From contig CAWIPL010000015.1 of assembly GCA_963838085.1 (NCBI GenBank), forward strand, positions 176,417 through 240,416: a stretch of 64,000 nt of DNA, written 5' to 3'. The translations under genes and the position numbers were made by a program. This document shows positions 18,394 to 39,113 of the stretch, piece by piece. The stretch's first letter is position 1; each line of letters starts with the position of its first letter. The notes below the pieces were generated by a model, which ran no database searches, was not told the origin of the DNA, and worked only from the letters and a program-made list of their open reading frames with translations. Origin of the DNA: an uncultured Chloroflexia bacterium (GTDB lineage Bacteria > Chloroflexota > Chloroflexia > Chloroflexales > Roseiflexaceae).

Positions 18394-21300
18394 ATGAACG
18401 ACTTTGTCCACCTCCATGTCCATTCTGAATACAGCCTGCTCGACGGCTATGCGACGACCAAGGGCATCGCCCAGCGTGCCGCCGATCTTGGCATGGACAG
18501 CATCGCGCTGACCGACCATGGTGTCATGTACGGCGCGATGGAGTTTTACGACGCCGCGAAAAAGGCGGGCATCAAGCCAATCATCGGCATGGAAGCCTAT
18601 ATGGCGCCCAACTCCATGAAGGATCCTATGGTCAAGGGCGGCAAGAATTATTATCACTTGCTGCTGCTGGCCAAGAACGAAGTTGGCTATCGCAATCTCG
18701 TCAAGCTGACGACCCGCGCGCACCTCGATGGTCTGGCCAACCGGGGCGTGTTTGCGCGCCCGCGCATCGACCGCGCGCTGCTGGAGCAGTACCATGAGGG
18801 CATCGTAGTCACTTCGACCTGCATCGCCGGTGAAGTTATTCAGAACATTACGCAGAAGCAAAAGGACAAAGCGCGCGAGGCGGCAGCCTGGCACCGCGAT
18901 TTGCTCGGTGCCGACAATTACTTTCTTGAGTTGCAACTGCACGACAACACGCCTGAACTGGAAGAAATCAACGACGAACTGGTAAAGATTGGTAGCGAAC
19001 TTGGCATCCCCATGGTCGTCACCAACGACACCCACTTCGTGCGGGCCGAAGATATTGAGGCGCAGTCCATGGTCATGGCTATGGGCTTCAACCTGACCTA
19101 TCGCGAGCTGTGCAGCAAAAACTACCAGATGGACGGCACCTACCACATCGCGTCGGGCGACGATATGTGGCAGCGCTTCAAGAAGTACGGCACCGCGCCA
19201 CTGGAAAATACCCGCCGGATTGCCGACATGTGCAACCTCAAGCTCGATTTCGGGCGCGTGCAGCTGCCGGAGTTCGAGATCCCGGACGGCCATGACGCGG
19301 CTTCGTATCTGCGCTTTGTGTGCGAGGAAGGCTTGATGAAGCGTTTCGCTGGCGCGCCGACTGAAGAATACATCAAGCGGCTCGATTACGAGCTTGACGT
19401 AATCAACAAGACCGGCTTTCCCGACTACATGTTGATTGTATGGGACTACGTGAAGTATGCCCGCAGCCGTGGCATCCCATGTCTGCCGCGTGGTTCGGCG
19501 GGCGCGTCGCTGGTGCTGTACTGTTTGTTCATCACCGACGTTGATCCGGTCAAGAACAAGCTGCTGTTCGAGCGCTTTTTGTCGCCAGAGCGCCTGGAGA
19601 TGCCGGACATCGACACTGACTTCGCCGACTCGCGCCGGGGCGAGATTCTGGATTACATCGCGGGCAAGTACGGGCGTGAAAATGTCGCGCAAATCATTAC
19701 CTACGGCACGCTGGGCGCGAAGGCGGCGCTGCGCGATATGGGTCGCGTGCTCGATATTCCGCTCAGCGAGGTTGATCGTGTCGCCAAGCTCATCCCGACG
19801 CTGCCGGTCGGCACGACGATCTCCTCAGCACTGGAGCGCGTGCCGGAGCTGAAGCAGATTTACGATGGCAACGGCGAGTTGCGTAACATGATTGATTGGG
19901 CGCAAAAGGTCGAAGGGCGCATGAAGAACGTTGGCACGCATGCCTGCGGCGTAGTGGTCAGCCACAACCCGCTCGAAAACATTGTGCCGCTTCAGCATAC
20001 TACCAAAGATGAAAACGCGGTCATGGCCGCCTTCGAAGGGCCGACGCTGGCGAAGATCGGGCTGCTCAAGATGGACATCTTGGGCCTCACCAATCTTTCG
20101 ATTGTGGCCGAGGCGCTCAATTACATCGAGCAGACGACCGGCAAGCGCATCGAGCTGGCCGACATTCCGCTGGAAGATCAGGCGACGTTTGAGGCGCTCG
20201 GGCGCGGCGAAACAACCAATGTATTCCAGCTTGAGTCGGTGGGCATGACGCGCTATCTGATGCAACTCAAGCCGACCCGCGTGGATGATCTGTACGCCAT
20301 GGTCGCGCTGTACCGGCCTGGCCCGCTGGAGCAGATTCCTGTTTATATTCAGAACAAGAATAATCCCAAAGGCATCAAGTACCTGCATCCGATTCTGAAG
20401 CCGATTCTTGAAGATACCTACGGCGTGATTGTGTACCAGGAGCAGATCATGCAACTGCTCCAGACGGTCGCTGAATACACGCTCGGCCAGGCGTACATCG
20501 TCATCAAGGCGATTAGTAAGAAAAATCGCGAGTTGATGGCCGAAAATGAAGTGCGCTTCAAAGATGGCTGCCTGCGTAAAGGTATCAGCAAAGACATTGC
20601 GAACGAACTGTGGGATCTGATTTTGCCGTTCGCGGGCTATTCGTTCAATCGACCGCACGCCACGCTCTACGGTTTGCTGTCGTACCAGACGGCCTGGCTC
20701 AAGAACAATTTCTCAACCGAATACATGGCCGCCGTGCTTTCCGCCGCTTCGGGCGACATGGAGTCCGTCACCAAGAGCGTGAACGAGTGCGGTCGGCTGG
20801 GCGTGGCAGTGCTGCCGGTGGACATCAATCAAAGCAGCACCGGCTTCACGATCGAGCCGCTGCCCGACGGTCAACTGACCGACTTCGACAACCGCATGGG
20901 CATTCGCTTCGGTCTGTCGGCGATCCGTAACGTCGGCGAAGGCCCGCTGTCGGTGATTCTCAAAGAGCGTGAGGAGAACGGGCCGTTCAAGTCACTGGAA
21001 GGATTCTGCGAGCGGGTGGACCGCACGGCGTTGAACAAGCGCGTGCTTGAAAGCCTGATCAAGTGCGGTGCGATGGATTCGCTGCCTGGCACGCGGCGAC
21101 AGAAGCTGGCGATCATGGAGCAGGCGCTGTCAATGGGCATTGAGTCGCAACGCGCCCGCGAGGCCGGGCAAGTCACCATGTTCGACTTCCTGGGCGGCGA
21201 CGCAAGCACGTCTGGCTCCAGCACGCAAACCATTCCGCTGCCATCAATTCCCGAAGAGCCGCACCATTATAAAGAGCAACTTTCATGGGAAAAAGAGTTG

Positions 21301-22197
21301 CTTGGTATGTACGTGTCGGCGCACCCCATGGTCAAGGCGCTTGAAGGCGTGGACATGAGCGGCATTACCTCGCTGGGCGACATCACCGATGAAGCGGTTG
21401 GGCAGGTGCGCACGTTCGTCGGCATGATCACGGGCGTGCGACGGCTGGCGACCAAGAAGGGCGACAGCATGCTGGTCGCGACGTTCGAGGATCAGGATTT
21501 GCTCACCATTGAGCTTGTCGCCTTTCCGAAAAGTTATGAGAAGTATCGCGAATTGTTGCAGGACGATGCGCTGCTCCGAATTACCGCCAAGGTTGACCGT
21601 GGCAAGCGCGACGACACGATCCAGTTATTGCTTGACTCAGCAGAGCCGCTTGAGGCTGCCAAACAAGCCTCACCCAACCAGGAAGCCCCACTTGCTATGG
21701 ATTTTGACCAGCTTACAGACGCGCCCAATGACGCGCCACCGATTGATATACCAACTGCGCATGTGAGCCAGCCTCTCGCTGCAATGGAATCAGCGCCGCA
21801 TGCCGAGGTGAGTGCGCCGGAGCCTGCGGCACCAGCGCCTGCCGCGCCATCAAACGGCCAGCCGCTCAGCGCCATCCGCGCGCGCACCAAGGTCGGCGCG
21901 AACGGCAATGATCATAGCAACGGCCACAGCAATGGCAACGGTGGTGGCTACGAGCCGCTGCACCATACGCTGCGGCTGTTCCTGGCACGCACCGAAGACT
22001 ACGACGCCGATGTGCGGCTGATGCAGCATGTCCATGATGTGCTGTGCCAGAGCGAAGGCGACGACTCGGTGCTGATCCACATTCCGAACGGCAGCACTAC
22101 CGTGGTATTACAGCATGGGCAGGCGGTGCGCTGTGACGACGGGCTGCTCCATGCGCTACGCGATGTACTCGGCACGGAGTGCGTGGTAGTGGAGTGA
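18394..22197 (+). CDS. dnaE: DNA polymerase III subunit alpha
   Basis: Derived from ORF 18325..22197, with the ATG taken at 18394 (MNDFVHLHVHSEYSLLDG, PHP domain). The polymerase core contains …PDIDTDF… and is followed by an OB fold. There is a C-terminal extension of about 200 aa. Confidence 0.95.
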   Translation: MNDFVHLHVHSEYSLLDGYATTKGIAQRAADLGMDSIALTDHGVMYGAMEFYDAAKKAGIKPIIGMEAYMAPNSMKDPMVKGGKNYYHLLLLAKNEVGYRNLVKLTTRAHLDGLANRGVFARPRIDRALLEQYHEGIVVTSTCIAGEVIQNITQKQKDKAREAAAWHRDLLGADNYFLELQLHDNTPELEEINDELVKIGSELGIPMVVTNDTHFVRAEDIEAQSMVMAMGFNLTYRELCSKNYQMDGTYHIASGDDMWQRFKKYGTAPLENTRRIADMCNLKLDFGRVQLPEFEIPDGHDAASYLRFVCEEGLMKRFAGAPTEEYIKRLDYELDVINKTGFPDYMLIVWDYVKYARSRGIPCLPRGSAGASLVLYCLFITDVDPVKNKLLFERFLSPERLEMPDIDTDFADSRRGEILDYIAGKYGRENVAQIITYGTLGAKAALRDMGRVLDIPLSEVDRVAKLIPTLPVGTTISSALERVPELKQIYDGNGELRNMIDWAQKVEGRMKNVGTHACGVVVSHNPLENIVPLQHTTKDENAVMAAFEGPTLAKIGLLKMDILGLTNLSIVAEALNYIEQTTGKRIELADIPLEDQATFEALGRGETTNVFQLESVGMTRYLMQLKPTRVDDLYAMVALYRPGPLEQIPVYIQNKNNPKGIKYLHPILKPILEDTYGVIVYQEQIMQLLQTVAEYTLGQAYIVIKAISKKNRELMAENEVRFKDGCLRKGISKDIANELWDLILPFAGYSFNRPHATLYGLLSYQTAWLKNNFSTEYMAAVLSAASGDMESVTKSVNECGRLGVAVLPVDINQSSTGFTIEPLPDGQLTDFDNRMGIRFGLSAIRNVGEGPLSVILKEREENGPFKSLEGFCERVDRTALNKRVLESLIKCGAMDSLPGTRRQKLAIMEQALSMGIESQRAREAGQVTMFDFLGGDASTSGSSTQTIPLPSIPEEPHHYKEQLSWEKELLGMYVSAHPMVKALEGVDMSGITSLGDITDEAVGQVRTFVGMITGVRRLATKKGDSMLVATFEDQDLLTIELVAFPKSYEKYRELLQDDALLRITAKVDRGKRDDTIQLLLDSAEPLEAAKQASPNQEAPLAMDFDQLTDAPNDAPPIDIPTAHVSQPLAAMESAPHAEVSAPEPAAPAPAAPSNGQPLSAIRARTKVGANGNDHSNGHSNGNGGGYEPLHHTLRLFLARTEDYDADVRLMQHVHDVLCQSEGDDSVLIHIPNGSTTVVLQHGQAVRCDDGLLHALRDVLGTECVVVE

Positions 22198-22219
22198 TGC
22201 TAGATAAGATAAACAAAAA

Positions 22220-23359
22220 ATGCCAGACGATAGTGATCTTGATGGGATTAACTCAGAGGCCTTTAGTGCCCAAAATAATGATATGCCTGAACAACTTCCA
22301 TCTGTTAGGCTAGACAAGATACAATTACTTGAAGCGATGCGCTATTTGCGTGAGTTTAAGAAACTCGAAAGTATGCGTGAGTATCTTGGCTTGCTAAAAA
22401 AAAGGATCGACGACTCTGGTAGTCAGTTGCATGCGCATGACGATGTCGACGCAGTAAATTTCCCTTACAGGTTGCTTCTACAGGATCTAAATCAAATAGC
22501 TGCGTCACAGACGCTTGAGCGTGCTCATTACTACGTTGATCGCTTTGTTAAGGCCATAACTGAGGAGCGTGTAAGTCCAATTAACGATATTAAGCTTAAT
22601 CGTTGGAAAGAATACAACGATATTTATACTGATAGCTTTTGGCATATCAAGCGGCGTGATAGCTCCGGTGCGCACACGGCAGACTACTGGGGCAACTTCA
22701 TTCCGCAGATACCGTATCAGATGATGCAGCGTTACACCAAGCGCGGCGAATGGGTGCTGGACGTGTTCGCTGGCTCCGGCACCACGTTGATTGAGGCGCA
22801 GCGGCGTGGACGTAATTGCCTTGGCATTGAGCTTCAGCCGAATGTTGCTGATCGCGCTCAGAGATTGATAGATGCCGAGCCAAATCAGTATGGAGTCACC
22901 TGCAAGATCATTACTGATGATAGCACATCAGCCGATTACAAGGAGTTGCTCCAAAAGAATGGCGCAGAGTCGGTGCAGCTCGTGATAATGCATCCACCCT
23001 ACTTCGATATTATTAAATTCAGTAACGATGCGCGCGACTTGTCGAACGCTGGGTCAGTTGAATCCTTCATAGAGCGCATGGGACAGGTGGTCGAGCGCGC
23101 CGCCGCCGTGCTCGACCGCGGGCGCTACCTGGTGCTGGTGATTGGCGATAAATATGTCAAAGGTGAATGGATACCACTCGGATTTCAGACCATGAGCGAA
23201 ATACAGCAGCGTGGTTTCCTATTGAAAAGTATCGTCGTCAAGAACTTTGAGGAGACAGCTGGTAAACGTTCACAAAAGGAGTTGTGGAAATATCGTGCAT
23301 TAGTTGGTGGGTTCTACGTTTTCAAGCACGAATATATTTTTATTTTTAAGAAACTATAG
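22220..23359 (+). CDS. DNA methyltransferase (N6-A/N4-C type) with permuted motif order and unusual HPPY motif IV
   Basis: Motif I region (YWGNFIPQIPYQMMQRYTKRGEWVLDVFAGSGTTLIEAQRRGRNCLGIELQ) precedes motif IV (VQLVIMHPPYFD…RVL-like DRGRYLVLVIGD…IVVKNF). A unique N-terminal domain of about 150 aa is present. The region is AT-richer than its flanks. Confidence 0.8.
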   Translation: MPDDSDLDGINSEAFSAQNNDMPEQLPSVRLDKIQLLEAMRYLREFKKLESMREYLGLLKKRIDDSGSQLHAHDDVDAVNFPYRLLLQDLNQIAASQTLERAHYYVDRFVKAITEERVSPINDIKLNRWKEYNDIYTDSFWHIKRRDSSGAHTADYWGNFIPQIPYQMMQRYTKRGEWVLDVFAGSGTTLIEAQRRGRNCLGIELQPNVADRAQRLIDAEPNQYGVTCKIITDDSTSADYKELLQKNGAESVQLVIMHPPYFDIIKFSNDARDLSNAGSVESFIERMGQVVERAAAVLDRGRYLVLVIGDKYVKGEWIPLGFQTMSEIQQRGFLLKSIVVKNFEETAGKRSQKELWKYRALVGGFYVFKHEYIFIFKKL

Positions 23360-23367
23360 CAATCCTA

Positions 23368-24483
23368 GAGAAGTTGTAAACTGTGCTACACTTGGCATCG
23401 AACTGATGATCAGATTTGAACCAAGGGTATGAGGAGCACAGCGATGAGCGTGGTACCGGCGGATCTGCAAGCCTTTCTGGATGAGCATCGGGACTCACGC
23501 GAGTATCGGCGGGGCGTGGCGGTCAAGCTGGCACTCCAAGGCTATCTGTACGCAACGATCTGCGCGATGTTGGATGTAAGTCCAGGGTTCATTAGCCAGG
23601 CGAAAATAGCCTATGAGACCGCTGGCGTCGATGGGCTACGACTTAAGTATCAGGGCGGGCAACCCTTTCTGACCGATGAACAACGACAGGCGGTCATTAC
23701 CTGGCTCAAAATCCAGCAGACCTGGTCGGTTGAGCTGCTCCGCTCGCATATTGAGACCACCTATGCGGTGGTATACCAGTCCAAGCAAAGCTATTACGAA
23801 CTCTTGGCCGAAGCCGGTATCACATACAAACGCTCGCAAGCGCGCAATCCAAAGCACGATCCCGAACAAGTTGTTGCGAAAAAAAAGCCATCCGAGCGCT
23901 CGTGATGCCCCTAGCAGCACAAATTGCCGCCAAGGAGGTAGTTGTCCTGTATATCGATGAATGTCACCTCAGTGCTGGCGACGCGTGTGGATATGTTTGG
24001 GGCCCAAGCCATCAGCGCATGTCGGTTCCGATCCTCAATCAACGCGACCGCCAAACCTACTATGGTGCTATCGATGCCTATACGGGTGAGTTGATCGTCG
24101 TCCCGCTCCAAGCCGGCACTACTGAATGGACACGGATCTTTGTTGAGTATTTGCGTGAGCAATTTACAGGGAAACGGCTGATCCTCTGTTGGGATGGAGC
24201 CTCCTACCATCGTAGCACCGAGATGCGAGAGTATCTCGAAGCCGTCAATCTTGGTCATGCGCACGACGATTGGCCGATCACCTGCATCCAATTTGCGCCC
24301 TATGCGCCAGAACAGAACCCAATCGAGGACGTCTGGTTACAAGCAAAAGACTACGTTCGGAAGCGCTGGCATCGCTGTAAGGATCACTTTCAGAGCATTA
24401 CTGACCTGTTCGAAGAAGCACTTAATACAATCGTCTTTGACTTTGAGAAGCTTCGTATGTATCTGCCAGATTTACAAATCGCG
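23368..24483 (+). mobile_element. IS630-family insertion sequence (about 1.1 kb) with TA target duplication
   Basis: Imperfect terminal inverted repeats: GAGAAGTTGTAAACTGTGC on the left, and GCCAGATTTACAAATCGCG on the right (reverse complement CGCGATTTGTAAATCTGGC). Each is flanked by TA (23366-67 and 24484-85). A two-frame DDE transposase lies inside. Confidence 0.8.
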
Positions 24484-24486
24484 TAG
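23444..24486 (+). CDS. IS630 family transposase (orfA 23444-23905 plus orfB to 24486, joined by -1 slippage on A8)
   Basis: orfA has HTH and winged-helix features. orfB has DDE features (LYIDECH…CWDGASYH…APYAPEQNPIEDVW). The orfB frame is open upstream through the AAAAAAAA run at 23879-23886 (…AKKK/KAIRALVMPLAAQ…). Confidence 0.8.
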
Positions 24487-24554
24487 GACTGCTATATAAT
24501 TTATGTGTATATCGTGACATTAAATTTTGTAACTATAATATAATATAGCTCTAC

Positions 24555-24956
24555 TTAGAGTCCTATTAGCTGCTTCTCTAAGTATGCTACAAGGATTTTC
24601 AACGCGCTCTCGCCAATAGGACCGCTTATCTTATAAAGAAATTCTTTTATTTTCTGTGCTGATAATTTCCGTTCTGCTTCAGGTGCTGAACTATCTTTCA
24701 CTTGGCTTAACAGTGTTTGTAGAGTTAACGCTTCAATCTTATTGGCATAGCTATTGAATAGCTCTACTAGATGGTTATCTTCGAGTGTGAATATAATATC
24801 ACCATTTAATTCATTGGCAATAATGGATTGTACTTTTGCTTCCTGTTGGACTGAAAAATTGGAGATATTCACTGTAATCGGTGCCGAGTTATTTGCAAGC
24901 GATATTAAGTTTAATGATTGTCTGTCCTGATCTATCTCTACTATACTGTTTGGCAC
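24555..24956 (-). CDS. hypothetical protein (AT-rich island), possibly the C-terminal part of the upstream ORF
   Basis: 133-aa ORF with a GTG start sharing one base with the TAG stop of ORF 24956..25984. Its frame stays open about 75 nt further upstream without a start codon (…HENENKLLRLRQQFESELLDIVPNS…). Confidence 0.5.
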   Translation of the reverse strand: MPNSIVEIDQDRQSLNLISLANNSAPITVNISNFSVQQEAKVQSIIANELNGDIIFTLEDNHLVELFNSYANKIEALTLQTLLSQVKDSSAPEAERKLSAQKIKEFLYKISGPIGESALKILVAYLEKQLIGL

Positions 24957-25984
24957 TATATCAAGTAATTCACTTTCAAACTGCTGTCTAAGTCGTAGTA
25001 ATTTATTTTCATTTTCGTGCTTAAATCGAGTTTAATTCTTTGATACTGCTTAGTAAACCTCGATATAGTACTAATGGCATCTAATGAAGATACTCCTCGC
25101 GATAGTAAAAGTGCTTCTGCCTGAGAAGGACTGTTCTGGGATAGCTCCATAAATGATTCAAATCTTGCTATAGAATTATCTAGCTCTTCAGTATCAGTAG
25201 ATGTACTTTTATCTTTGAATATATAAATTATTCCATAATCTGTCTTTCTGCTATCAATAAAAATTGATTTTCCTTCTACATTTTGTAGATAATTCTCAAA
25301 TAGTTTTAATATACTTTCAAACTGTTCAGCTTGAAACCTTCCATTTGGAACATACAGTCGTAGAAAAATTCCTCCTTCGATTTCATCAAGAAAATCTTGT
25401 ATGCGAAGTGTAATATCTAAGTTTCTCTTATAGGGAACAATAGAAACGCCACTCTCATATATAAAACCTAGCAATCTATCCACCTTTTCAGCAGCTTTGG
25501 AAAGCTCTTCAACCTTGTTGAAAGATGCTCGGATTTCAGCATCATACGATTTAGACGGATTAATTATGTCATGAAAGTTAGACTGTTGGTACGGTGAGAT
25601 TGTCTGAACTGAAGCAAGATGTTGCTTGGCATCATTTACACGAGTATACACTCCATTCAGGTTATCCTCATAAATAAAGACTAGAGATTGAGATTGTCTA
25701 ATTTCATTTAGTAGATGAGGCCAGTATGCCTCATACTCTAGGGTAGAGGTCTTAAAAAGAGTTTCTTCAGTAAAGTTAGCGAAGAGAGCTACTAATGAGC
25801 CATTCTCACGTTGTTCTCCGATATAGTTAATAATTTTTACCCAGTTCTCTACTTTAGAAGTAACAACTCGTTTTTTATAATCGTAGTCCATTGACGTAAT
25901 CTTATCAGCTACTCCCTCTCTGATATAGCCAGATAACAATACTACGATTTTCTTCGAGATGTTTGAAGTAGATGTCTGGTGCAT
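24956..25984 (-). CDS. hypothetical protein (AT-rich island), no recognisable motif
   Basis: Derived from ORF 24956..26008. ATG at 25984 with an AGGAA 8 nt upstream. 342 aa, rich in K/N/I/E. No Walker, nuclease or HxH motifs were found by eye. Confidence 0.55.
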   Translation of the reverse strand: MHQTSTSNISKKIVVLLSGYIREGVADKITSMDYDYKKRVVTSKVENWVKIINYIGEQRENGSLVALFANFTEETLFKTSTLEYEAYWPHLLNEIRQSQSLVFIYEDNLNGVYTRVNDAKQHLASVQTISPYQQSNFHDIINPSKSYDAEIRASFNKVEELSKAAEKVDRLLGFIYESGVSIVPYKRNLDITLRIQDFLDEIEGGIFLRLYVPNGRFQAEQFESILKLFENYLQNVEGKSIFIDSRKTDYGIIYIFKDKSTSTDTEELDNSIARFESFMELSQNSPSQAEALLLSRGVSSLDAISTISRFTKQYQRIKLDLSTKMKINYYDLDSSLKVNYLI

Positions 25985-26078
25985 GCAGATGTTCCTATAT
26001 AAATACAAGACGTTAACACTGAAGACAATTATAGCATAGTTAATTCAGCTTATCTAGACCGATTTACATGTACTTTCC

Positions 26079-27011
26079 ATGAATAATCTCGCTATCCTAA
26101 GTGCTCTAATCGGTGCGCCTGTCATCGCTGCTGAACGCTGCGCCATGGGCTTCGAAAACCGCACTGATCTGGTGACGTTGGCCGACGGGCAGCAACGCAT
26201 TGTGCAGCAGATAACCAGCCGCGCGCTCGCGCCGCACAAGATTCGGCTGGCGCAGCAGCTACCGGAGCGGTTCGCCGCTGTTGGTGTGCGGCTGCCGCGT
26301 GTGCTTGTCGCCGATGCGCATGCCAATCCTCCATACGTGGTGCGCGAATACCTGCATGGCACGCCCGGCAACGTGCTGCTGGACGATGATGTGTCTGCCG
26401 TGGCGCTGGCTCGCGCCATGGGTGCGCTGCTGCCGCATTTGGCGCAGGTTGACACGGCAGGGCTTGGCCTTCATCGCGGCTGGGCCGATGGAGAGCGGCT
26501 CGCCCGTCAGTCACTTCAATATCTCAACCGCTGCCGTCCGCTGCTCGACGTTGTGACGGTGCAGGCGCTGGAGCAGACGATTGCTGCTGTTCCGTCGCAA
26601 TTCGCCGGGCGTGGCGGATGCTTTGCGCATGGCGACTTTTGTCCGGTGAATGCCCTGATTGAGACGACCGACGACCGGCGACCGACGACCGACGTAGGTC
26701 TGACAGAACATTCATTGTCTGCCATCAGCCTGCTTGACGTGGAGTTTGCTCGCGTCGCCGACCCGTTGTTCGACGCAGCATGGTGGGGCTGGGTCGTGCG
26801 CTACCATCATCCGGCACGCTGGCGGGTGGCCTGGCCAGTGCTGCTCGACGCTGCGGGCATACCTAATGATGTGGAAACTAATGTTCGTGCGCATGTGCTC
26901 CAGCAACTGCGCTGCCTGGAGGCGCTGAGCTACTACCTTGCGACGCGCGGCACAGACGGCGCGGCCATGTGGGCGCAGCGCCTGACCGCGACCGTCGGAT
27001 GGGAAGCGTAG
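26079..27011 (+). CDS. phosphotransferase (APH/choline-kinase-like) family protein
   Basis: Catalytic loop CFAHGDFCPVNALI and LLDVEFARVADPLFDAAWW (the HGD…N…D-x-E/F pattern). It contains the heptamer insert at 26663-26694. Confidence 0.75.
   Translation: MNNLAILSALIGAPVIAAERCAMGFENRTDLVTLADGQQRIVQQITSRALAPHKIRLAQQLPERFAAVGVRLPRVLVADAHANPPYVVREYLHGTPGNVLLDDDVSAVALARAMGALLPHLAQVDTAGLGLHRGWADGERLARQSLQYLNRCRPLLDVVTVQALEQTIAAVPSQFAGRGGCFAHGDFCPVNALIETTDDRRPTTDVGLTEHSLSAISLLDVEFARVADPLFDAAWWGWVVRYHHPARWRVAWPVLLDAAGIPNDVETNVRAHVLQQLRCLEALSYYLATRGTDGAAMWAQRLTATVGWEA
26663..26694. repeat. heptamer tandem array inside the phosphotransferase CDS
   Basis: GACGACC-GACGACC-GGCGACC-GACGACC-GACG. No convincing complementary arm was seen. 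Confidence 0.7.
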
Positions 27012-27028
27012 ACGCGCCTGCTTTTCGC

Positions 27029-28790
27029 TTACTTTTGAAATGTTCCTACTGCCGTGATTTCGCTCCACTCGCCCCGAGCGACCATGGAGTACGAGCCAGC
27101 CGGAAGCATGGCGGTGTCAAATGTAAAGTGAATGGTGCCATTCTCGTCGGCATGGGTTTGAGGAACGGGACCAACGGTGCCATTCGGCGTGTTGTACCAC
27201 AGCGCCACTGGCTCGTTTGGCGCAAACACCCCGCTCGCGAACATGCGCATGCTGCCTTCTTCCTCAATTGTTAAGTTGTAGAACTGCTGTTGAGTGGTTG
27301 TGTCTGTGGCAACAAGAACCGGCATGTTACTCTGTCCACTGCCGCCACCGCGCCCATCTGCCCAACGATAAGTCAGTCGTTCACCGAGTTGTGTGCCTGT
27401 CATGAGACCTGGCTGTGTGATCAAACGCACCGTGGCTGTTACTGCATCACCACTGCTGCCGAGCCGTCCGATTTGGAACACGAGCGCATCTGCCTCAATG
27501 CTGCTGACCCACGCTTCCTTGCGGCTAAAATTGGCATCCAGCACGCGGAACTTAGCGGGATCGAACGGCAGCGTCACAGTCGCATTGCTGGCCGCGCCCT
27601 GGCCGCGATTGGTCGCCACGATAGTGTAGGTCACGGTATCACCGGGCCGCACCGCAATGTTGGGACTGGGCCGCTGCACCACGGTAACAAAAGCAGGTTT
27701 GCTCTGTGTATTCATGATGGGAGCCGCGCCACGCTCAAAGAGCAGCACTCCAGGCCCAAAAAGGTTGCCTGTCGCTGCGTTAATAAGCACACCCCTAAAT
27801 GCTCCCGTATGTCCGTCATAGCGCAGCACCTGGCTAAACCACAAGCTGCTCACATACAGATTGCCATCAGGGCCAAAGGCCAGACCCGAAGGGTGTGACA
27901 GGCCAGTTCGTGGGCCGCCGGGGATGGGATAGGGCGCATTGCTGGGACTTCTCGCAAATACATCAATAAAAGCGCCAGTGCGCCCATTGAAGCGCAGCAC
28001 CTGATCCGTTTCATAGCTGATGACGTACAAATTGCCATCTGGTCCGAACGTGAGATGCGTTGGAAAGCGCAAACCGCCACTGTTCGGCGCAACGAATATA
28101 CCAAGAAACTGGCCGGTGTGACCATCGAAGCGCAGCACCGTATTGTCCCGGGCGACGCTGAGGTATAAATTGCCGTCCCGCCCAAATGCAATGCCGGAAA
28201 TGTAGATCGATTTGAGTTGGGATAGCCCAATTGTCGATGCGGCAACGCCCCCATACGTACCAGTCCGACCGTTAAATCGCAACACACGGCCAAATTCGTC
28301 AACAACATATACATTGCCATCTGGCCCAAAGAGCAAATCACCTGGCCTCGAAAGACGATATGTACCTTGATTCAGGTGACGGATACGGCCCAATTTCTCC
28401 AGCAAACACATCAACGAATGTCGCTGTGCGTGGATTGAAGCGCAGTATCTGGTTGGTACTAGCGCTGCTAACGTAGAGTAAACCATTTGCCCCAAGTGCT
28501 AGTCCTGATGGCCCGTCAAGCACGTACCGATTGGGATCGTCAGGTGGCGGATAAAACAAGGCGACTGTAGATTTAAGTTGACCTGTTGTTCCGTTAAAAC
28601 GTAAAACTTGATTCGTGCCGAGATCAGCGACGTACAGATTGTTATCACTTGCACTTTGTGCTGATGGGCCGCCGGGAAACAAAATGCCTACGGCGATAAG
28701 CATGGCGGCTACTATGGTGATCCACACTTTTACGAACTGCCAGCGTTGCTCTGCACGCTTTGAGTGAGATGAAGAAGTACCATGCAGCAT
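27029..28790 (-). pseudogene. secreted NHL-repeat (beta-propeller) protein with DUF11/Ig-like C-terminal domains, frame-disrupted
   Basis: ORF 28338..28790 (signal/TM plus NHL repeats, NLYVADLGTNQVLRFNG…) and ORF 27029..28495 (…GDLLFGPDGNVYVVDEFGRVLRFNG… repeated, then TVTYTIVATNRGQGAASNATV) are in different frames. They join as …FVDVFAGEIG/RIRHLNQGT… at about 28385-28392. Confidence 0.7.
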
Positions 28791-28907
28791 ACTTACTCCT
28801 TTGTACGTGGATCTATTTGCGGGAAGAATAAGCAGAGTATAGCATGAAAATCGGTAGCTCCATGCGCAAACTGTTCGTGAAGCTTCTGCGAGGATAGCAA
28901 TGATGTG

Positions 28908-31448
28908 CTACAAGTGCCGCGTGAACGGCAGCCATGTCTTCTGCGGTGGCGTAGTCACCTGTACGTTTAGCGGCTCGCTGTACGGCCCGCAGCCGCCCTC
29001 ATTGCAGCCACGCACGCGGAACGTATAGCTGCCAACATCCTCGACTGTAGTGAAGCTTGCATCAATTGTCATGTACATTGCCTTTGCTGTACCTTTGCCG
29101 GTTGGTGCAATGATCTGCTGCTCAATGTCGTAACGGGTAGCACTTGGTGAAGCGTTCCATGCTAATGAAATTGTTGGGCTGCCAGCCATGCCAATCGAGC
29201 GTAAGGTCGGCGCGGGCGGCGGCGCTACTGCAACGATCTGCTGTGCTCCGGCGACCACCGCGAATGGCTGTGCGCCGCCCTGTGCCACCACTGCCGCATG
29301 GACGCGAATGGTATAGGTGCCAGCCTGCGGCGCGGTAAGCTCGATGCTCTCCATGACATTACAGCGATCAGCGCCTGCTGCGTTGCGACAGTTCGCTGGC
29401 AAGTCAGCGCTTGCGTTGCCGAGCACCATACCGCCGGGTGTCTGCACTTCCAGATCAAGGTCATTCACCAGCGTCTTGAACACAACAGGTGACGCGGGAT
29501 AGTCGGTCCATGCCAGTGTCACGCGCAGCGGCTGCCCGGCGCTGACATGAAGTGTATAGCTCATTGTCTGGCCGGTCTGCAAGCCAGTGTCATTGTCGGC
29601 AAACCACACCCGCTGCGGCTCACCTTGCCCCACTGTGGCGGCAATATCGGCCCGTCCCCAACCCTCGACATTGTTCGGCCATGTTGATGGAATCTCGCGT
29701 TGCCCCCCCGCGCCGTACTGTCCAGGCGTGATATTAGTCGCGCCGTTCAGCAGCAGCGCCTTGACCAACGCCGCGCTGGGCGTGACGACATCGTACTGCT
29801 GAGCCAGCCATTGTCGCGTGAGCGCCGCCAGTCCGCTCACCATTGGCGTCGCCATGGACGTACCGCTTTTGTAGGCATAATCTTGATTGTAGGGCGTGTC
29901 ATAATAGGCGTTGGGGTCGTGCGACCGCGACGAAATAATGTTGGTTCCCGGCGCAACGATCTCAGGTTTAATTCGTCCATCGTCTGCCGGGCCGCGGCTC
30001 GAAAAAGCCGCCATGCCGCTGGGATTATTGCTAATGAAATCATCAGCGAGTGGTACATGCGCGAATTGCAGGCTTTTCCAGCAGACATTTTGCGGCCCGT
30101 TCGACGCACAGGTGCTGCTCGTTGGTGGGCGATTGCTTTCGCTGGCCCCAACGCTGAGAACATTCTTAGCCGTGGCAGGCTGCTCTGTCGAGTCGCTATC
30201 TACAACACCATCGTTGTTTGAGTCGGTTCCACCATTGCCAACCGAGGCGATTAGCACATGATCTTTGTGTTGCCACAAAAACGTATCCATAACCTGATCC
30301 AGCATGGTGTAGCGCCCAAACATGTCTCCACCATACTGGCCGGTTGGGCCGCTAAAGCTTGCGTTTTGGATACGTGCGCCTGCGTCATAGGCCAGTGCCA
30401 GAAACGAGTCGTCATCTGGCAAACAGTCCAGGTGATCGCTGCCGCCCGACACGGCCTGCACGACAATGCCTGCTTTCGGCGCAACACCTGCGAATGACAT
30501 CCCCGGCGGTGATAGCGCGCCGGTGCCGAGCAATGTCCCGGCGACATGTGTGCCATGGCCGTTGGCATCGCTCCATGTCGCGCCGTTGCTATAGATGGCG
30601 CAGGATGGGCTCATTTCCTTCCGTGAGAAGCCACGCACCACGCGCCCGGCAAAATCGGCGCTCAGGTTGCCTTGCACGTCCAGCCCGGTGTCGGTCACGG
30701 CAATGATCTGTCCGCTGCCGTCCAGTCCGAGCTGCTGCCGTACGACCGGCACGCCCAGGATTTCGTTCGCTTTGTCATTGGTGATATGGAGTGCAGCAAC
30801 CGGCTCGATCCACAGCACATCATCGCGCTCTGTCATAGCCTTCAGCGCAGCCGCTGGCAACCGCACATGGAACGCGGTGCCGGTCATGCTCACAACTGTG
30901 CCACCTGCGGCTGTGACTGCGTCCGCAAGCGTGCTCGGCTGTGCGTCAGGCGTTGTCAGTACGTGCAAATCAATGGTTTGCTGAGGCGGATCGCTCATCT
31001 GCATGCTACTGTTGACGAGCGGGTCCAGGTCGCTCGAAAGCTTGTAGCGCGACTCGACCGGCCCACTCCAGCGCACCCATGACGCTGACAATTGCGCAGC
31101 AGGCTGTGTAGCGCGCACAATAAATGCGTTGTCGGGCACATAGACCAGCGGTTGAAGGCCCGCCGATGCAAGTTGGGCAGGAGTGTTGGCATCCGGCGCA
31201 TGCTGAAGCTGCACAAGTAGCAACGATGACGTAGCTTGGGTACGCGCTGTAGCGCGTATTGGGACTTGCTGGAGCGGATCAAAACGCGCGCGCCGCAGCG
31301 AGATCATGGCGGACGCGCGGGTGCTCTGAGCGGCAACAGGCCACCCGCACCATGGCAAGCATGCCAGAACAATGAACAGTAGCAACAGATGATGCTTTGG
31401 CACGGGTGTTCCTTTGTGGCACCGCGCATGGTGATAATGTCTGTACAT
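28908..31448 (-). CDS. S8 family (subtilisin-like) serine peptidase with C-terminal beta-sandwich domains
   Basis: Catalytic triad contexts VTDTGLD, HGTHVAGT and SGTSMATPMVSGLAAL. N-terminal signal-like segment. Confidence 0.9.
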   Translation of the reverse strand: MYRHYHHARCHKGTPVPKHHLLLLFIVLACLPWCGWPVAAQSTRASAMISLRRARFDPLQQVPIRATARTQATSSLLLVQLQHAPDANTPAQLASAGLQPLVYVPDNAFIVRATQPAAQLSASWVRWSGPVESRYKLSSDLDPLVNSSMQMSDPPQQTIDLHVLTTPDAQPSTLADAVTAAGGTVVSMTGTAFHVRLPAAALKAMTERDDVLWIEPVAALHITNDKANEILGVPVVRQQLGLDGSGQIIAVTDTGLDVQGNLSADFAGRVVRGFSRKEMSPSCAIYSNGATWSDANGHGTHVAGTLLGTGALSPPGMSFAGVAPKAGIVVQAVSGGSDHLDCLPDDDSFLALAYDAGARIQNASFSGPTGQYGGDMFGRYTMLDQVMDTFLWQHKDHVLIASVGNGGTDSNNDGVVDSDSTEQPATAKNVLSVGASESNRPPTSSTCASNGPQNVCWKSLQFAHVPLADDFISNNPSGMAAFSSRGPADDGRIKPEIVAPGTNIISSRSHDPNAYYDTPYNQDYAYKSGTSMATPMVSGLAALTRQWLAQQYDVVTPSAALVKALLLNGATNITPGQYGAGGQREIPSTWPNNVEGWGRADIAATVGQGEPQRVWFADNDTGLQTGQTMSYTLHVSAGQPLRVTLAWTDYPASPVVFKTLVNDLDLEVQTPGGMVLGNASADLPANCRNAAGADRCNVMESIELTAPQAGTYTIRVHAAVVAQGGAQPFAVVAGAQQIVAVAPPPAPTLRSIGMAGSPTISLAWNASPSATRYDIEQQIIAPTGKGTAKAMYMTIDASFTTVEDVGSYTFRVRGCNEGGCGPYSEPLNVQVTTPPQKTWLPFTRHL

Positions 31449-36878: not shown

Positions 36879-37730
36879 CTACAAGCCGCATGCTGACGAG
36901 CCGGGATTATTGATGCAATACGTCAGCAGCACGAGCGCTACACCGTTGTTGATTGCATGGGCTAAAATACTTGGAATCAAACTGCGGGTGCGATCCATAG
37001 CCCACGCAAACAGCAGTCCCATGACAAATGCGGGAACGAGCAGCCCAACAAGTCCCTCAGTTGCCGCCAGTGAGTGCGCCAGCATGAACAGCAGCGCGCT
37101 GATAATGTAGGCTGCTGGACGGCCCCATGCGAACCGTGCCCAGCTTTGCTTGAAGGCATTGAATGCATAGCCACGAAACAGTGTTTCTTCACCCATAGGC
37201 ACAATCACGGCTGCGCCAATGAAGAACAGCGCCTGCCCAATATAATCGCCCGCGTAGAGAGGATACTGCGCCGACTGGTTCTGTTGCACGCCGAATGACG
37301 AAAAGATTGCGCCGAACATGCCATTGCTGATCAGCGTCACCACGCCGAGGCCAATGCCAAGCGCAACGAGCTTGAGCGGCTGTGGCGCGCGGAACCCGAT
37401 CGTACTGATTGGCTCGCGCCGCAACACACCGACGCGTAGCAGTGGCACAGCGATAAAGATCAAATTCTGGACAACCAGCGTCGCGAAGATGCCTGGTACG
37501 CCAATCAACCGAATGGCATATTCCGGGCTGACGTTGCCACCACTAAAGAGTTGGCCACCTTGCCGCATACTGTTGCCAATTAAAAACACTGCAGCAATGA
37601 TGGACGTGATAATGATAACGCCAATCATGGTCACCACGAAGTCGATGAAAAAGACGCCGGCGAGCGGCCAGCGCCCTCTACTTTGTGGTTGCGTCTCATA
37701 CGCCGGATAGTCGCCTTCGTACTGGGCCAT
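36879..37730 (-). CDS. CPBP family intramembrane glutamic endopeptidase (CAAX protease-like)
   Basis: Motifs GEETLFRGY and …LAHSL…HAINN across TM helices. The ATG at 37730 overlaps the miaB stop (TGATG). Confidence 0.8.
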   Translation of the reverse strand: MAQYEGDYPAYETQPQSRGRWPLAGVFFIDFVVTMIGVIIITSIIAAVFLIGNSMRQGGQLFSGGNVSPEYAIRLIGVPGIFATLVVQNLIFIAVPLLRVGVLRREPISTIGFRAPQPLKLVALGIGLGVVTLISNGMFGAIFSSFGVQQNQSAQYPLYAGDYIGQALFFIGAAVIVPMGEETLFRGYAFNAFKQSWARFAWGRPAAYIISALLFMLAHSLAATEGLVGLLVPAFVMGLLFAWAMDRTRSLIPSILAHAINNGVALVLLTYCINNPGSSACGL

Positions 37731-39113
37731 CAGGCCAGTTCTCCCTCTGCCACGAGGTCGCTTTGGAGTGACCATGGGCTCGTGTGCGTGACGCGGACAC
37801 GGGCAAGCCGTCCGGTCCAATCGCGGTCGTCACTGAAGAAGACGAGCTTGTTGCCGGGCGTGCGACCGCGCCACTTGCCCTTGCTTTCGCCCTCAACCAA
37901 CACTTCCACAATGTGGCCAAGCAGTTGTGCGTTGCGTTCGGTCGCGATGCCTTCTTGGATGCGTTCAAGCTCGACGCGGCGGGCCTGTTTTTCGCCCTCT
38001 GGCACGGCCAGCGCAGGGTCTTCTTCCATTGCACCAGCGCGCGTGCCTGGCCGCCATGAGTAGGCTGCAATATGCACTTTGTCGAAGCGTATCTCCTCGA
38101 TCAGCGCTTTGGTGCCTTCAAAGTGTTCGCGCGTCTCACCCGGGTGGCCGACAATAATGTCGGTGACCATGGCAACGTGCGGGATGGCTGACCGAATGCG
38201 CCCCACCAGGTCGCGGTAGCGCTGCACGGTGTAGCCGCGCCGCATGACCTTGAGCATGGTGTCGTGCCCGGCCTGCACCGGAAGGTTGATTTCCGGCATG
38301 ACGCGCGGCAATTCAGCAATGGTCGCAATCAGCTTGTCGGTCATCCATGCCGGATGCGACGTCAGGAATCGCATCCGAACCAGGCCTGGCACCTCGTGTA
38401 CGGCACGCAGCAACTCGGCAAGATTAGGCCGTCCCGGCAGATCGTGGCCCCATGAGCTCGACAATCTGGCCCAGCAGCGTAATCTCTTTCGCGCCGCGAG
38501 CGACGATGCGCTGCACTTCGTCCACAATTTCTTCCAACGGGCGGCTGCGCTCGCGGCCACGCCGCTGGGGAATCACGCAAAAGGCACAATTCATGTTACA
38601 GCCGTACTGGATTGGCACATGCACCGACACCGGTGGATGCGTCCAGTTGGCGACTGGCAGCGCAGGCTCGTCGAGCTGATAGATGGAGTTGGGTGCGAGG
38701 GCCAGCACCTCATCCACTGCCGAGGGCGACACGAAATGATCGACCACCGGCAGGCGCTGCTTGAAGATCGACTGGTTGTTCGGGCCGACCATGCAGCCCC
38801 ATAGCACCACCGTGGTGTCTGGCAATTCGCGCTTCACACGCTGCAACTCGCCCAGCTTGCCGATGATGCGCTCTTCCGCCGAGGCCCGCACGCTGCATGA
38901 ATTCAGCACAATGAAGCTGGCCTCTTCAGGCCGGTCAGCCGGCGCATAGCCGACGCCTTGCAGCGCCGCCTCAAGCCGATCTGAATCGGAGATATTCATC
39001 TGGCAGCCGACCGTCCAGACATAATAGCGCCGGTCGCGCGGTGTAGTGTCACGCGAGGGGCGCGGAATCAGCGGCTGGGCTGCATCTTGTGTGAGTAAAA
39101 TAAGATTTTCCAT
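37730..39113 (-). pseudogene. miaB: tRNA (i6A37) methylthiotransferase MiaB, frame-disrupted as sequenced
   Basis: The N-terminal ORF 38424..39113 has the UPF0004 domain and the radical-SAM motif CNMNCAFC. The C-terminal ORF 37730..38560 has the rest of the radical-SAM fold and the TRAM domain. They join as …[12 protein letters not shown] / [16 protein letters not shown]… at about 38450-38460. Confidence 0.85.

Follow-up and report, generated by a model that had tools for sequence, protein, structure and literature searches.

A frameshifted gene of an unnamed protein family inserted beside an IS630-family element in a Chloroflexia genome

Two adjoining open reading frames (ORFs) on the minus strand of the window, the whole stretch of 64,000 nucleotides that was analysed, are one gene (25984..24555) that encodes a cytoplasmic protein of about 476 residues from an unnamed and uncharacterised family. 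When all the evidence is considered jointly, the locus is very probably best explained as a single frameshifted gene of this family that arrived in a recent single-gene insertion and that may have a role in conflict, the last part being drawn from how the family behaves in genomes.

The upstream ORF of 342 aa (25984..24959) begins with an ATG at 25984 and ends in SSLKVNYLI before a TAG stop at 24958-24956. The downstream ORF of 133 aa (24956..24555) begins with a GTG at 24956-24954 and stops at 24557-24555, and base 24956 is common to the TAG of the former and the GTG of the latter. The second frame is -1 relative to the first, i.e. one base is missing, and it is open for 75 nt (25 codons) beyond the GTG, up to 25031, with the translation TRFKHENENKLLRLRQQFESELLDIV. 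An earlier note, made from the sequence alone, had described an ORF pair of 342 and 133 aa, a one-base overlap between TAG and GTG and a downstream frame open for about 75 nt further upstream; all of these features are present, and the strand, which it left unstated, is the minus strand. The annotated 133-aa ORF covers only that portion of the C-terminal part that lies beyond the frame-0 stop. The promoter-like site listed in Table 1 lies within the AT-rich 5' flank, 44 nt before the ATG, and is a pattern match only; a terminator-like hairpin was not found.

Homologues of the protein are encoded as single ORFs. A word-indexed search with the 342-aa query identified eight homologues, all of them single ORFs; six were 446-490 aa long with 32-50% identity to the query, and the other two were shorter (380 and 348 aa) with the N-terminal part absent. 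An exhaustive profile search yielded 671 clusters at 50% identity, 325 of them at E<=1e-30, the great majority being 435-500 aa in length and covering the whole profile. Most of the best 150 homologues by score are single ORFs across the whole profile, including the motif at which the window gene is broken. Alignment with the closest homologue, P0003 (481 aa), placed the 342-aa ORF on residues 6-324 (50% identity, E 8e-111) and the extended downstream frame on residues 327-481 without gaps (40% identity, E 4e-34). On the family profile, the N piece occupied positions 4-317 with 370 bits and the C piece positions 312-466 with 163 bits. The 476-aa product obtained by joining the two through an X scored 467 bits on the family HMM, above the 442-bit median of the compared members, fragments included. 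The near-invariant residues of the family (W50, Y216 in RLYxP, G256, F280, A294, R321, D325, G400, D436, and Y473) and the R321-x3-D325-x2-H-E-x-E-x-K motif are all kept in the two frames of the window. Both halves of the gene are otherwise undamaged and neither shows decay. Thus, the proposal in the earlier note of one protein of about 480 aa interrupted by a 1-nt indel is supported by the consecutive placement of the two pieces on single-ORF homologues and by the score of the joined product, and the tightly coupled two-gene unit that it had offered as the other option is not supported, the homologues being single ORFs.

The position of the frame break was examined by building a family HMM and scoring X-joined read-throughs of the window at every possible junction. 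The junction at 25024-25023 scored best (467.4 bits), closely followed by that at 25021-25020 (466.9 bits); junctions in AAAATGAAAATAAA, just downstream of the switch, gave 453-460 bits, and towards the annotated stop the values dropped continuously to 426 bits. As the junction scores peak at 25020-25025, the break is one missing base in GATTTAAGC (TTTAAG), a T3A2 sequence and not a long homopolymer, with an accuracy of about +/-10 nt for the switch position. The earlier placement of the switch at about 25000-25030 therefore stands as a range, and the position is refined to 25020-25025 at the 5' edge of that range. The break is located between the conserved Asp codon and the Lys-His-Glu codons of the R-x3-D-x2-H-E-x-E-x-K motif, which is the best conserved of the family (R321 in 147 of 147 sequences and D325 in 141 of 146), and every conserved residue of the motif is preserved on either side of it. 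In the structure models, the break falls inside a single long predicted helix.

Table 1. Coordinates of the features at the frameshifted gene and its insertion site.
Feature	Position in the window	Strand	Basis or description
Gene N-terminal 320 codons, frame 0	25023..25984	-	ATG 25984 to Asp codon 25027-25025
Content of the N-terminal part	25023..25984	-	Flavodoxin-like N-domain, helical insert, alpha/beta middle domain with RLYVPNG, beginning of the conserved long helix
Frame break, one base missing in GATTTAAGC	25020..25025	-	HMM scores of X-joined read-throughs
Gene C-terminal part, about 155 codons in frame -1 plus stop codon	24555..25022	-	Gap-free P0003 alignment, profile score
Content of the C-terminal part	24555..25022	-	Remainder of the conserved helix, disordered linker, C-terminal helical bundle
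Promoter-like site TAGATA, 17-nt spacer, TG-TATAAT	26028..26056	-	Consensus scan, 10/12, extended -10
Low-GC (0.31-0.41) single-gene cargo segment, 1.58 kb	24496..26078		Composition; missing from same-genus genome G001
IS630-family element	23356..24495	+	HTH and DDE_3 domains; beside the 3' end of the gene, which it leaves uninterrupted

As to why the frame is broken, an error in the assembly consensus, with the gene intact in the organism, has about an even chance or slightly better. Other genes of the same assembly are broken in a similar manner: ileS, an essential gene on contig C8, occupies two reading frames, with the break region at about 260118-260131; miaB, located in the window with its break region at about 38424-38560, is split within its radical-SAM core into pieces that match residues 14-217 and 234-456 of MiaB (7mjv); and a neighbouring NHL-repeat gene, also split, is represented in the same-genus genome G001 by one ORF of 718 aa. 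The state of the genome (94% complete, 6% contaminated, 17 contigs) fits split marker genes. Moreover, neither half of the family gene contains another lesion, and the joined product scores like other family proteins. Against such an error, the seven near-identical IS630 copies in the genome (about 8 kb) differ by four substitutions and no indels, and rpoB, rpoC, gyrA, two uvrA copies, secA, dnaE, and three other aminoacyl-tRNA synthetase genes are intact, with intact large genes amounting to about 32 kb in all, which indicates that the indel error rate of the assembly is not extreme; the break site is also merely T3A2. Given that ileS, miaB, and the NHL-repeat gene are frame-broken as well, the chances of a consensus error and of a genuine mutation of very recent date are about equal. 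The latter would be an inactivating frameshift in a costly and newly acquired gene, making it a young pseudogene, and we place it somewhat below an even chance. Family members are often broken elsewhere: the copy in the related genome G014 is split by an IS4-type element, a Bosea cluster includes both 371-aa and 462-aa forms, and several N-only or frameshift-tailed members are found on contigs of 72-145 kb. The window gene also adjoins an IS630 element that is active and present in seven copies. On the other hand, it has no second lesion and has lost no conserved residue, and the same assembly is frame-broken in genes that cannot be pseudogenes.

A two-part unit by design, consisting of translationally coupled genes at the TAG/GTG overlap or of one gene read by programmed -1 ribosomal frameshifting, would agree with the base shared by the stop and the GTG and with the -1 relation of the frames. 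However, no X XXY YYZ slippery heptamer is present in frame 0 at or near the junction AAACTCGATTTAAGCACGAAAATG, and the homology to single-ORF relatives in the second frame runs 25 codons upstream of the GTG. Most of the best homologues span this region in one frame, and the break cuts through one long predicted helix. The lack of a slippery heptamer together with a break inside one helix renders a designed arrangement of either kind very improbable, and programmed -1 frameshifting was rejected on the missing heptamer and the single-frame homologues.

The base composition of the locus and the gene order in a related genome reveal how the gene is placed. GC content is 0.31-0.37 over 24400-26000 compared with 0.55-0.65 in the flanks and the genome, and the family gene is present in a single copy in the window's own genome (G000). 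BLAST comparison of window positions 19000-29000 with G001 gave the order dnaE, DNA methyltransferase gene, a spacer of about 70 bp with a hairpin, and an APH-like kinase gene, the methyltransferase and the APH-like gene being 75% and 78% identical to those of the window. Because G001 has the methyltransferase, spacer, and APH-like gene in succession, the stretch 23356-26078, consisting of the IS630 copy and the low-GC gene segment, is an insertion in place of the spacer. The presence of a low-GC segment and an IS630 copy where the ancestral spacer would be thus indicates a recent single-gene horizontal acquisition and not a restriction partner of the methyltransferase. Flanking direct repeats that would explain the arrival of the segment were not found. 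Description of the locus as a 3.9-kb island including the methyltransferase was rejected.

Alternatively, the gene could encode a restriction endonuclease that forms a pair with the convergent N4/N6 DNA methyltransferase (22220-23359), the two having been parted by the IS630 insertion. The genes are convergent once IS630 is removed, the methyltransferase carries an N6_N4_Mtase domain, and 70 residues of the C-terminal part have a weak match to the PADLOC REase_II model (E 0.0026). This pairing is nevertheless scarcely credible, as G001 has the methyltransferase at the same site without the gene, and the methyltransferase likewise occurs in G002 and G014 with the family gene not adjacent. No methyltransferase homologue is found beside other members of the family at 17 other loci (13 after removal of near-duplicates), and the GC content of the methyltransferase (0.41-0.52) differs from that of the gene. 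No nuclease fold or motif was found either: for PD-(D/E)xK, HNH, GIY-YIG, and PLD nucleases there was no Pfam or NCBIfam match and none among the fold matches, leaving the REase_II hit as the only one. The restriction-enzyme reading was accordingly rejected on the genomes in which the methyltransferase lacks the gene and on the neighbourhoods of other members. The same data refute the suggestion in the earlier note that methyltransferase genes might adjoin the homologues; the window methyltransferase is ancestral and the gene was inserted later.

The pieces of the window gene had no match to a Pfam, NCBIfam, or PHROGs family. With PADLOC-DB 2.0.0, the N piece had no match and the C piece had only the weak one mentioned above. 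When 85 members were scanned against Pfam at E<=1, no family recurred and no TIR-family match appeared; NIR_SIR_ferr in four of the 85 at E>=0.015 is noise. The statement in the earlier note that no motif could be recognised by eye thus extends to the family models of these four collections. For structure prediction, we folded P0003 as the closest intact homologue and P0010 as a natural core-only member, in place of the joined window protein. In the AlphaFold model of P0003 (pLDDT 76.8, pTM 0.62), the predicted chain begins with a flavodoxin-like N-domain and a helical insert; a small alpha/beta domain with RLYVPNG follows, and then a long helix that leads through a disordered linker to a C-terminal helical bundle. 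The P0010 core model, calculated with 150 sequences, reached a pLDDT of 90.4 and a pTM of 0.85. Searches with the core model by Foldseek against PDB and BFVD and by VIA-align wide gave a best Z of 6.9, which is at noise level; the matches at this level were ion-channel helices and generic four-helix bundles. The family HMM found nothing among PDB sequences, and the whole-protein model was matched solely via its N-domain. An ESM Atlas search with another member, P0005, returned clusters of "hypothetical protein" and an AbiTii lead with a score of 0.75, below the trust level.

The predicted N-domain has a flavodoxin-like parallel sheet and resembles both TIR domains (7fcl, Z 10.3; 3h16, Z 9.7; 8g83, Z 9.2) and CheY-like receivers (3snk, Z 10.0; 4kfc, Z 9.8); in a model of this pLDDT, TIR is tied with receivers and other Rossmann-like folds. 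Neither likeness extends to the sequence. The position of the TIR catalytic Glu after strand C (E75) is a glutamate in only 38 of 131 family sequences, and hhalign against a real TIR_2 sequence gave a probability of 0.1%. Unlike receivers, the family has no phospho-acceptor Asp at the end of strand 3, where positions 72-74 read K/Y/H-L-T, and in place of the acidic pair after strand 1 it has G-[N/D/S] at positions 20-21; the hhalign probability against a real receiver sequence was 0.5%. Furthermore, true TIR_2 or receiver domains sit ahead of the family N-domain in some relatives. No conserved catalytic-type residue was identified in the N-domain. Since the near-invariant residues of the family are mostly structural (Y, G, F, and A), along with the R/D/H/E motif in the helix, we infer from sequence conservation that the protein would act as a sensor or scaffold and would have no enzymatic activity.

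The family is patchily distributed among relatives of the window genome. Of 60 related genomes searched, one contains a copy (G014, 35% identity), and a phylum sample of 400 genomes, in which some of the 60 are repeated, gave no other match at E<=1e-10. A GTDB-wide pattern scan identified one locus, and tblastn of phage and plasmid record collections with two family members gave no match. At every locus examined, GC content of the gene is below that of its contig, by 0.02-0.20. The G014 copy that was knocked out by the IS4-type element lies beside an Mrr-type (Mrr_cat) nuclease gene, and the copy at locus L026 lies beside a PD-(D/E)xK nuclease gene. In three IMG/VR prophages (L013, L024, and L025), the family gene follows, at a distance of 3-54 nt and in the same orientation, a gene for a 215-aa CI-like S24 repressor; an integrase gene lies downstream, and a terminase gene (L013) and primase genes (L013 and L024) lie upstream. 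The repressors of these prophages are 80% identical while the family proteins are 45-48% identical, and the three contexts represent one phage lineage and are not independent. In some relatives, the whole module is preceded by an N-terminal TIR_2, CHAT, AAA_23/SMC_N ATPase, Response_reg, or STAS domain; the CHAT fusion is an 881-aa cyanobacterial "CHAT domain-containing protein". An all-against-all blastp comparison of neighbours, which covered L001-L013 from genomes and metagenomes, the G014 locus, and the window and left out prophage loci L024-L026, found no conserved partner gene across independent loci, outside duplicate contigs. The sole recurring neighbour is the CI-like repressor in the three related prophages.

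The low GC content, the place after a prophage repressor, and the fusions to TIR, CHAT, and ABC-ATPase domains suggest a conflict or defence role for the family, and the patchy distribution, recurrent disruption, and nuclease neighbours at G014 and L026 agree with this suggestion. Weighing against it, no catalogued defence model matches the family, and the phage and plasmid record collections gave no match. Likewise, the core has no structural relative in PDB or BFVD, the N-domain lacks a conserved catalytic-type residue, and independent loci share no conserved partner gene. The receiver and STAS fusions suit signalling equally well, and the prophage cases come from one lineage. We therefore put forward only tentatively, as a proposal with appreciably less than an even chance, that the protein acts on its own in conflict between phage and host or between mobile elements, for example in abortive-infection-type defence or superinfection exclusion. 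In such a role, the non-catalytic flavodoxin-like N-domain, shaped like TIR or a receiver, and the novel core, alpha/beta plus helical, could serve as a sensor or scaffold, and this module would bear TIR, CHAT-protease, or ABC-ATPase heads in some relatives. The fuller version of this proposal, which we consider rather unlikely as a whole, is a protein that works alone in anti-phage defence or superinfection exclusion, is previously undescribed and has a new core fold, is carried as low-GC cargo of prophages, directly after the repressor, and of chromosomal islands, can be combined with TIR, CHAT, or ABC-ATPase effector heads, and is often lost; within it, the frequent loss by frameshift or IS insertion would occur because the gene is costly.

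Two kinds of known systems offer partial parallels. In phage lambda, rexAB adjoins cI, and lysogeny modules of prophages harbour 'moron' defence genes. The family gene is similar in that it directly follows a CI-like repressor gene, has a GC content below that of the phage, and diverges much faster than the repressor; by analogy, the position and divergence of the prophage genes would be those of exclusion or defence cargo. Unlike the prophage morons, the copy in the window lies outside a prophage, and the family has no sequence or fold similarity to described exclusion or abortive-infection proteins beyond the AbiTii lead below trust level. Kaur and colleagues are said to have described, in 2020 and 2021, effector-swapping conflict systems of multicellular prokaryotes. 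The family resembles these in joining a constant module to N-terminal heads that vary (TIR, CHAT, or ATPase) and in its patchy occurrence in Chloroflexota-like and cyanobacterial genomes. It differs in that no NTPase or partner genes are conserved near the gene and in that the Pfam models for the effector-swapping modules, which we take to include EACC1, EADs, VMAP, and others, do not match it.

For annotation, a single frameshifted gene or pseudogene should take the place of the two "hypothetical proteins", and the methyltransferase should be regarded as an ancestral orphan rather than half of a restriction-modification pair. The split is ordinary in itself, and what deserves attention is a family that is unnamed, structurally unmatched, mobile, and defence-like. 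The family is sizeable (671 clusters when grouped at 50% identity); Pfam, NCBIfam, PHROG, and PADLOC contain no model for it, and its confidently predicted core is without a solved structural relative. Its resemblance to defence genes consists of the xenogeneic composition, the position in the immunity region of prophages, the fast divergence, the effector fusions, and the recurrent inactivation. Such defence-like genomic behaviour makes intact homologues reasonable candidates for a phage-challenge screen, and the family itself offers a sensible lead towards a new protein of phage/host conflict.

The N6_N4 DNA methyltransferase gene downstream of dnaE occupies the same position in the same-genus genome G001, at 75% DNA identity, and is found in the relatives G002 and G014 as well. 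This distribution rules out the gene as part of a recently acquired island and, despite its lower GC, marks it as an ancestral orphan methyltransferase. Its 3′ end is overlapped by the left end of the neighboring IS630 element, from which (at about 23356) all seven copies in the genome are identical. The methyltransferase C-terminus reads IFKKL-TAG in the window versus IFKKK-TAA in G001. Taken with the position of the IS630 end over the last codon and stop, this indicates that the insertion rewrote the C-terminal residue and provides the stop codon.

Coordinates of the features discussed
Feature	Location	Strand	Details
DNA methyltransferase	window 22220-23359		downstream of dnaE
IS630 left end/methyltransferase 3′ end overlap	window 23348-23360		last methyltransferase codon + stop
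NHL-repeat/DUF11 protein gene	window 27029-28790	minus	two overlapping frames
miaB	window 37730-39113	minus	split into overlapping ORFs 38424-39113 and 37730-38560
ileS frame break	contig C8 of the window's genome, about 260118-260131		two frames, profile 2-527 and 521-850
G014 family member, IS-interrupted	L018 7737-10434 = G014:C1, about 4519736-4522433
Repressor + family gene, three related prophages	L013 9253-11299; L024 9221-11332; L025 9251-11350

Other genes in the same genome are also frame-broken. The sole strong ileS match spans two different frames and, because the gene is essential, the break is most likely an assembly error. Within the window, the two miaB ORFs match residues 14-217 and 234-456 of MiaB (7mjv), respectively. 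The NHL-repeat/DUF11 gene has a counterpart in the same-genus genome that is one 718-aa ORF (L019 2439-4595).

Among the 60 relatives searched, the sole other member of the family of the frame-broken window gene is in G014, where it is cut by an IS4-type element of ~1.2 kb (DDE_Tnp_1 transposase, L018 8298-9500). Its neighbors there encode an Mrr_cat nuclease and a DUF6953 protein. Inside the APH-like gene beside the window member, a 32-nt stretch (26663-26694) has more than 20 matches scattered through G014, at 94-97% identity, and a single match in G001. Its behavior is that of a short dispersed repeat and not of a local array. In the metagenome contigs L002 and L003, the second gene upstream of the family member encodes a SAM-dependent methyltransferase (Methyltransf_25; L002 129-1178, L003 311-1359). 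This gene is a 349-aa single ORF in one contig and is broken into 210 aa and 144 aa in its near-identical partner.

In the three related prophages, the family gene lies directly downstream of the repressor and is of lower GC. The repressors are 80% identical, and the family members just 45-48%. The slot downstream of the repressor in the immunity region holds fast-evolving or swapped cargo.
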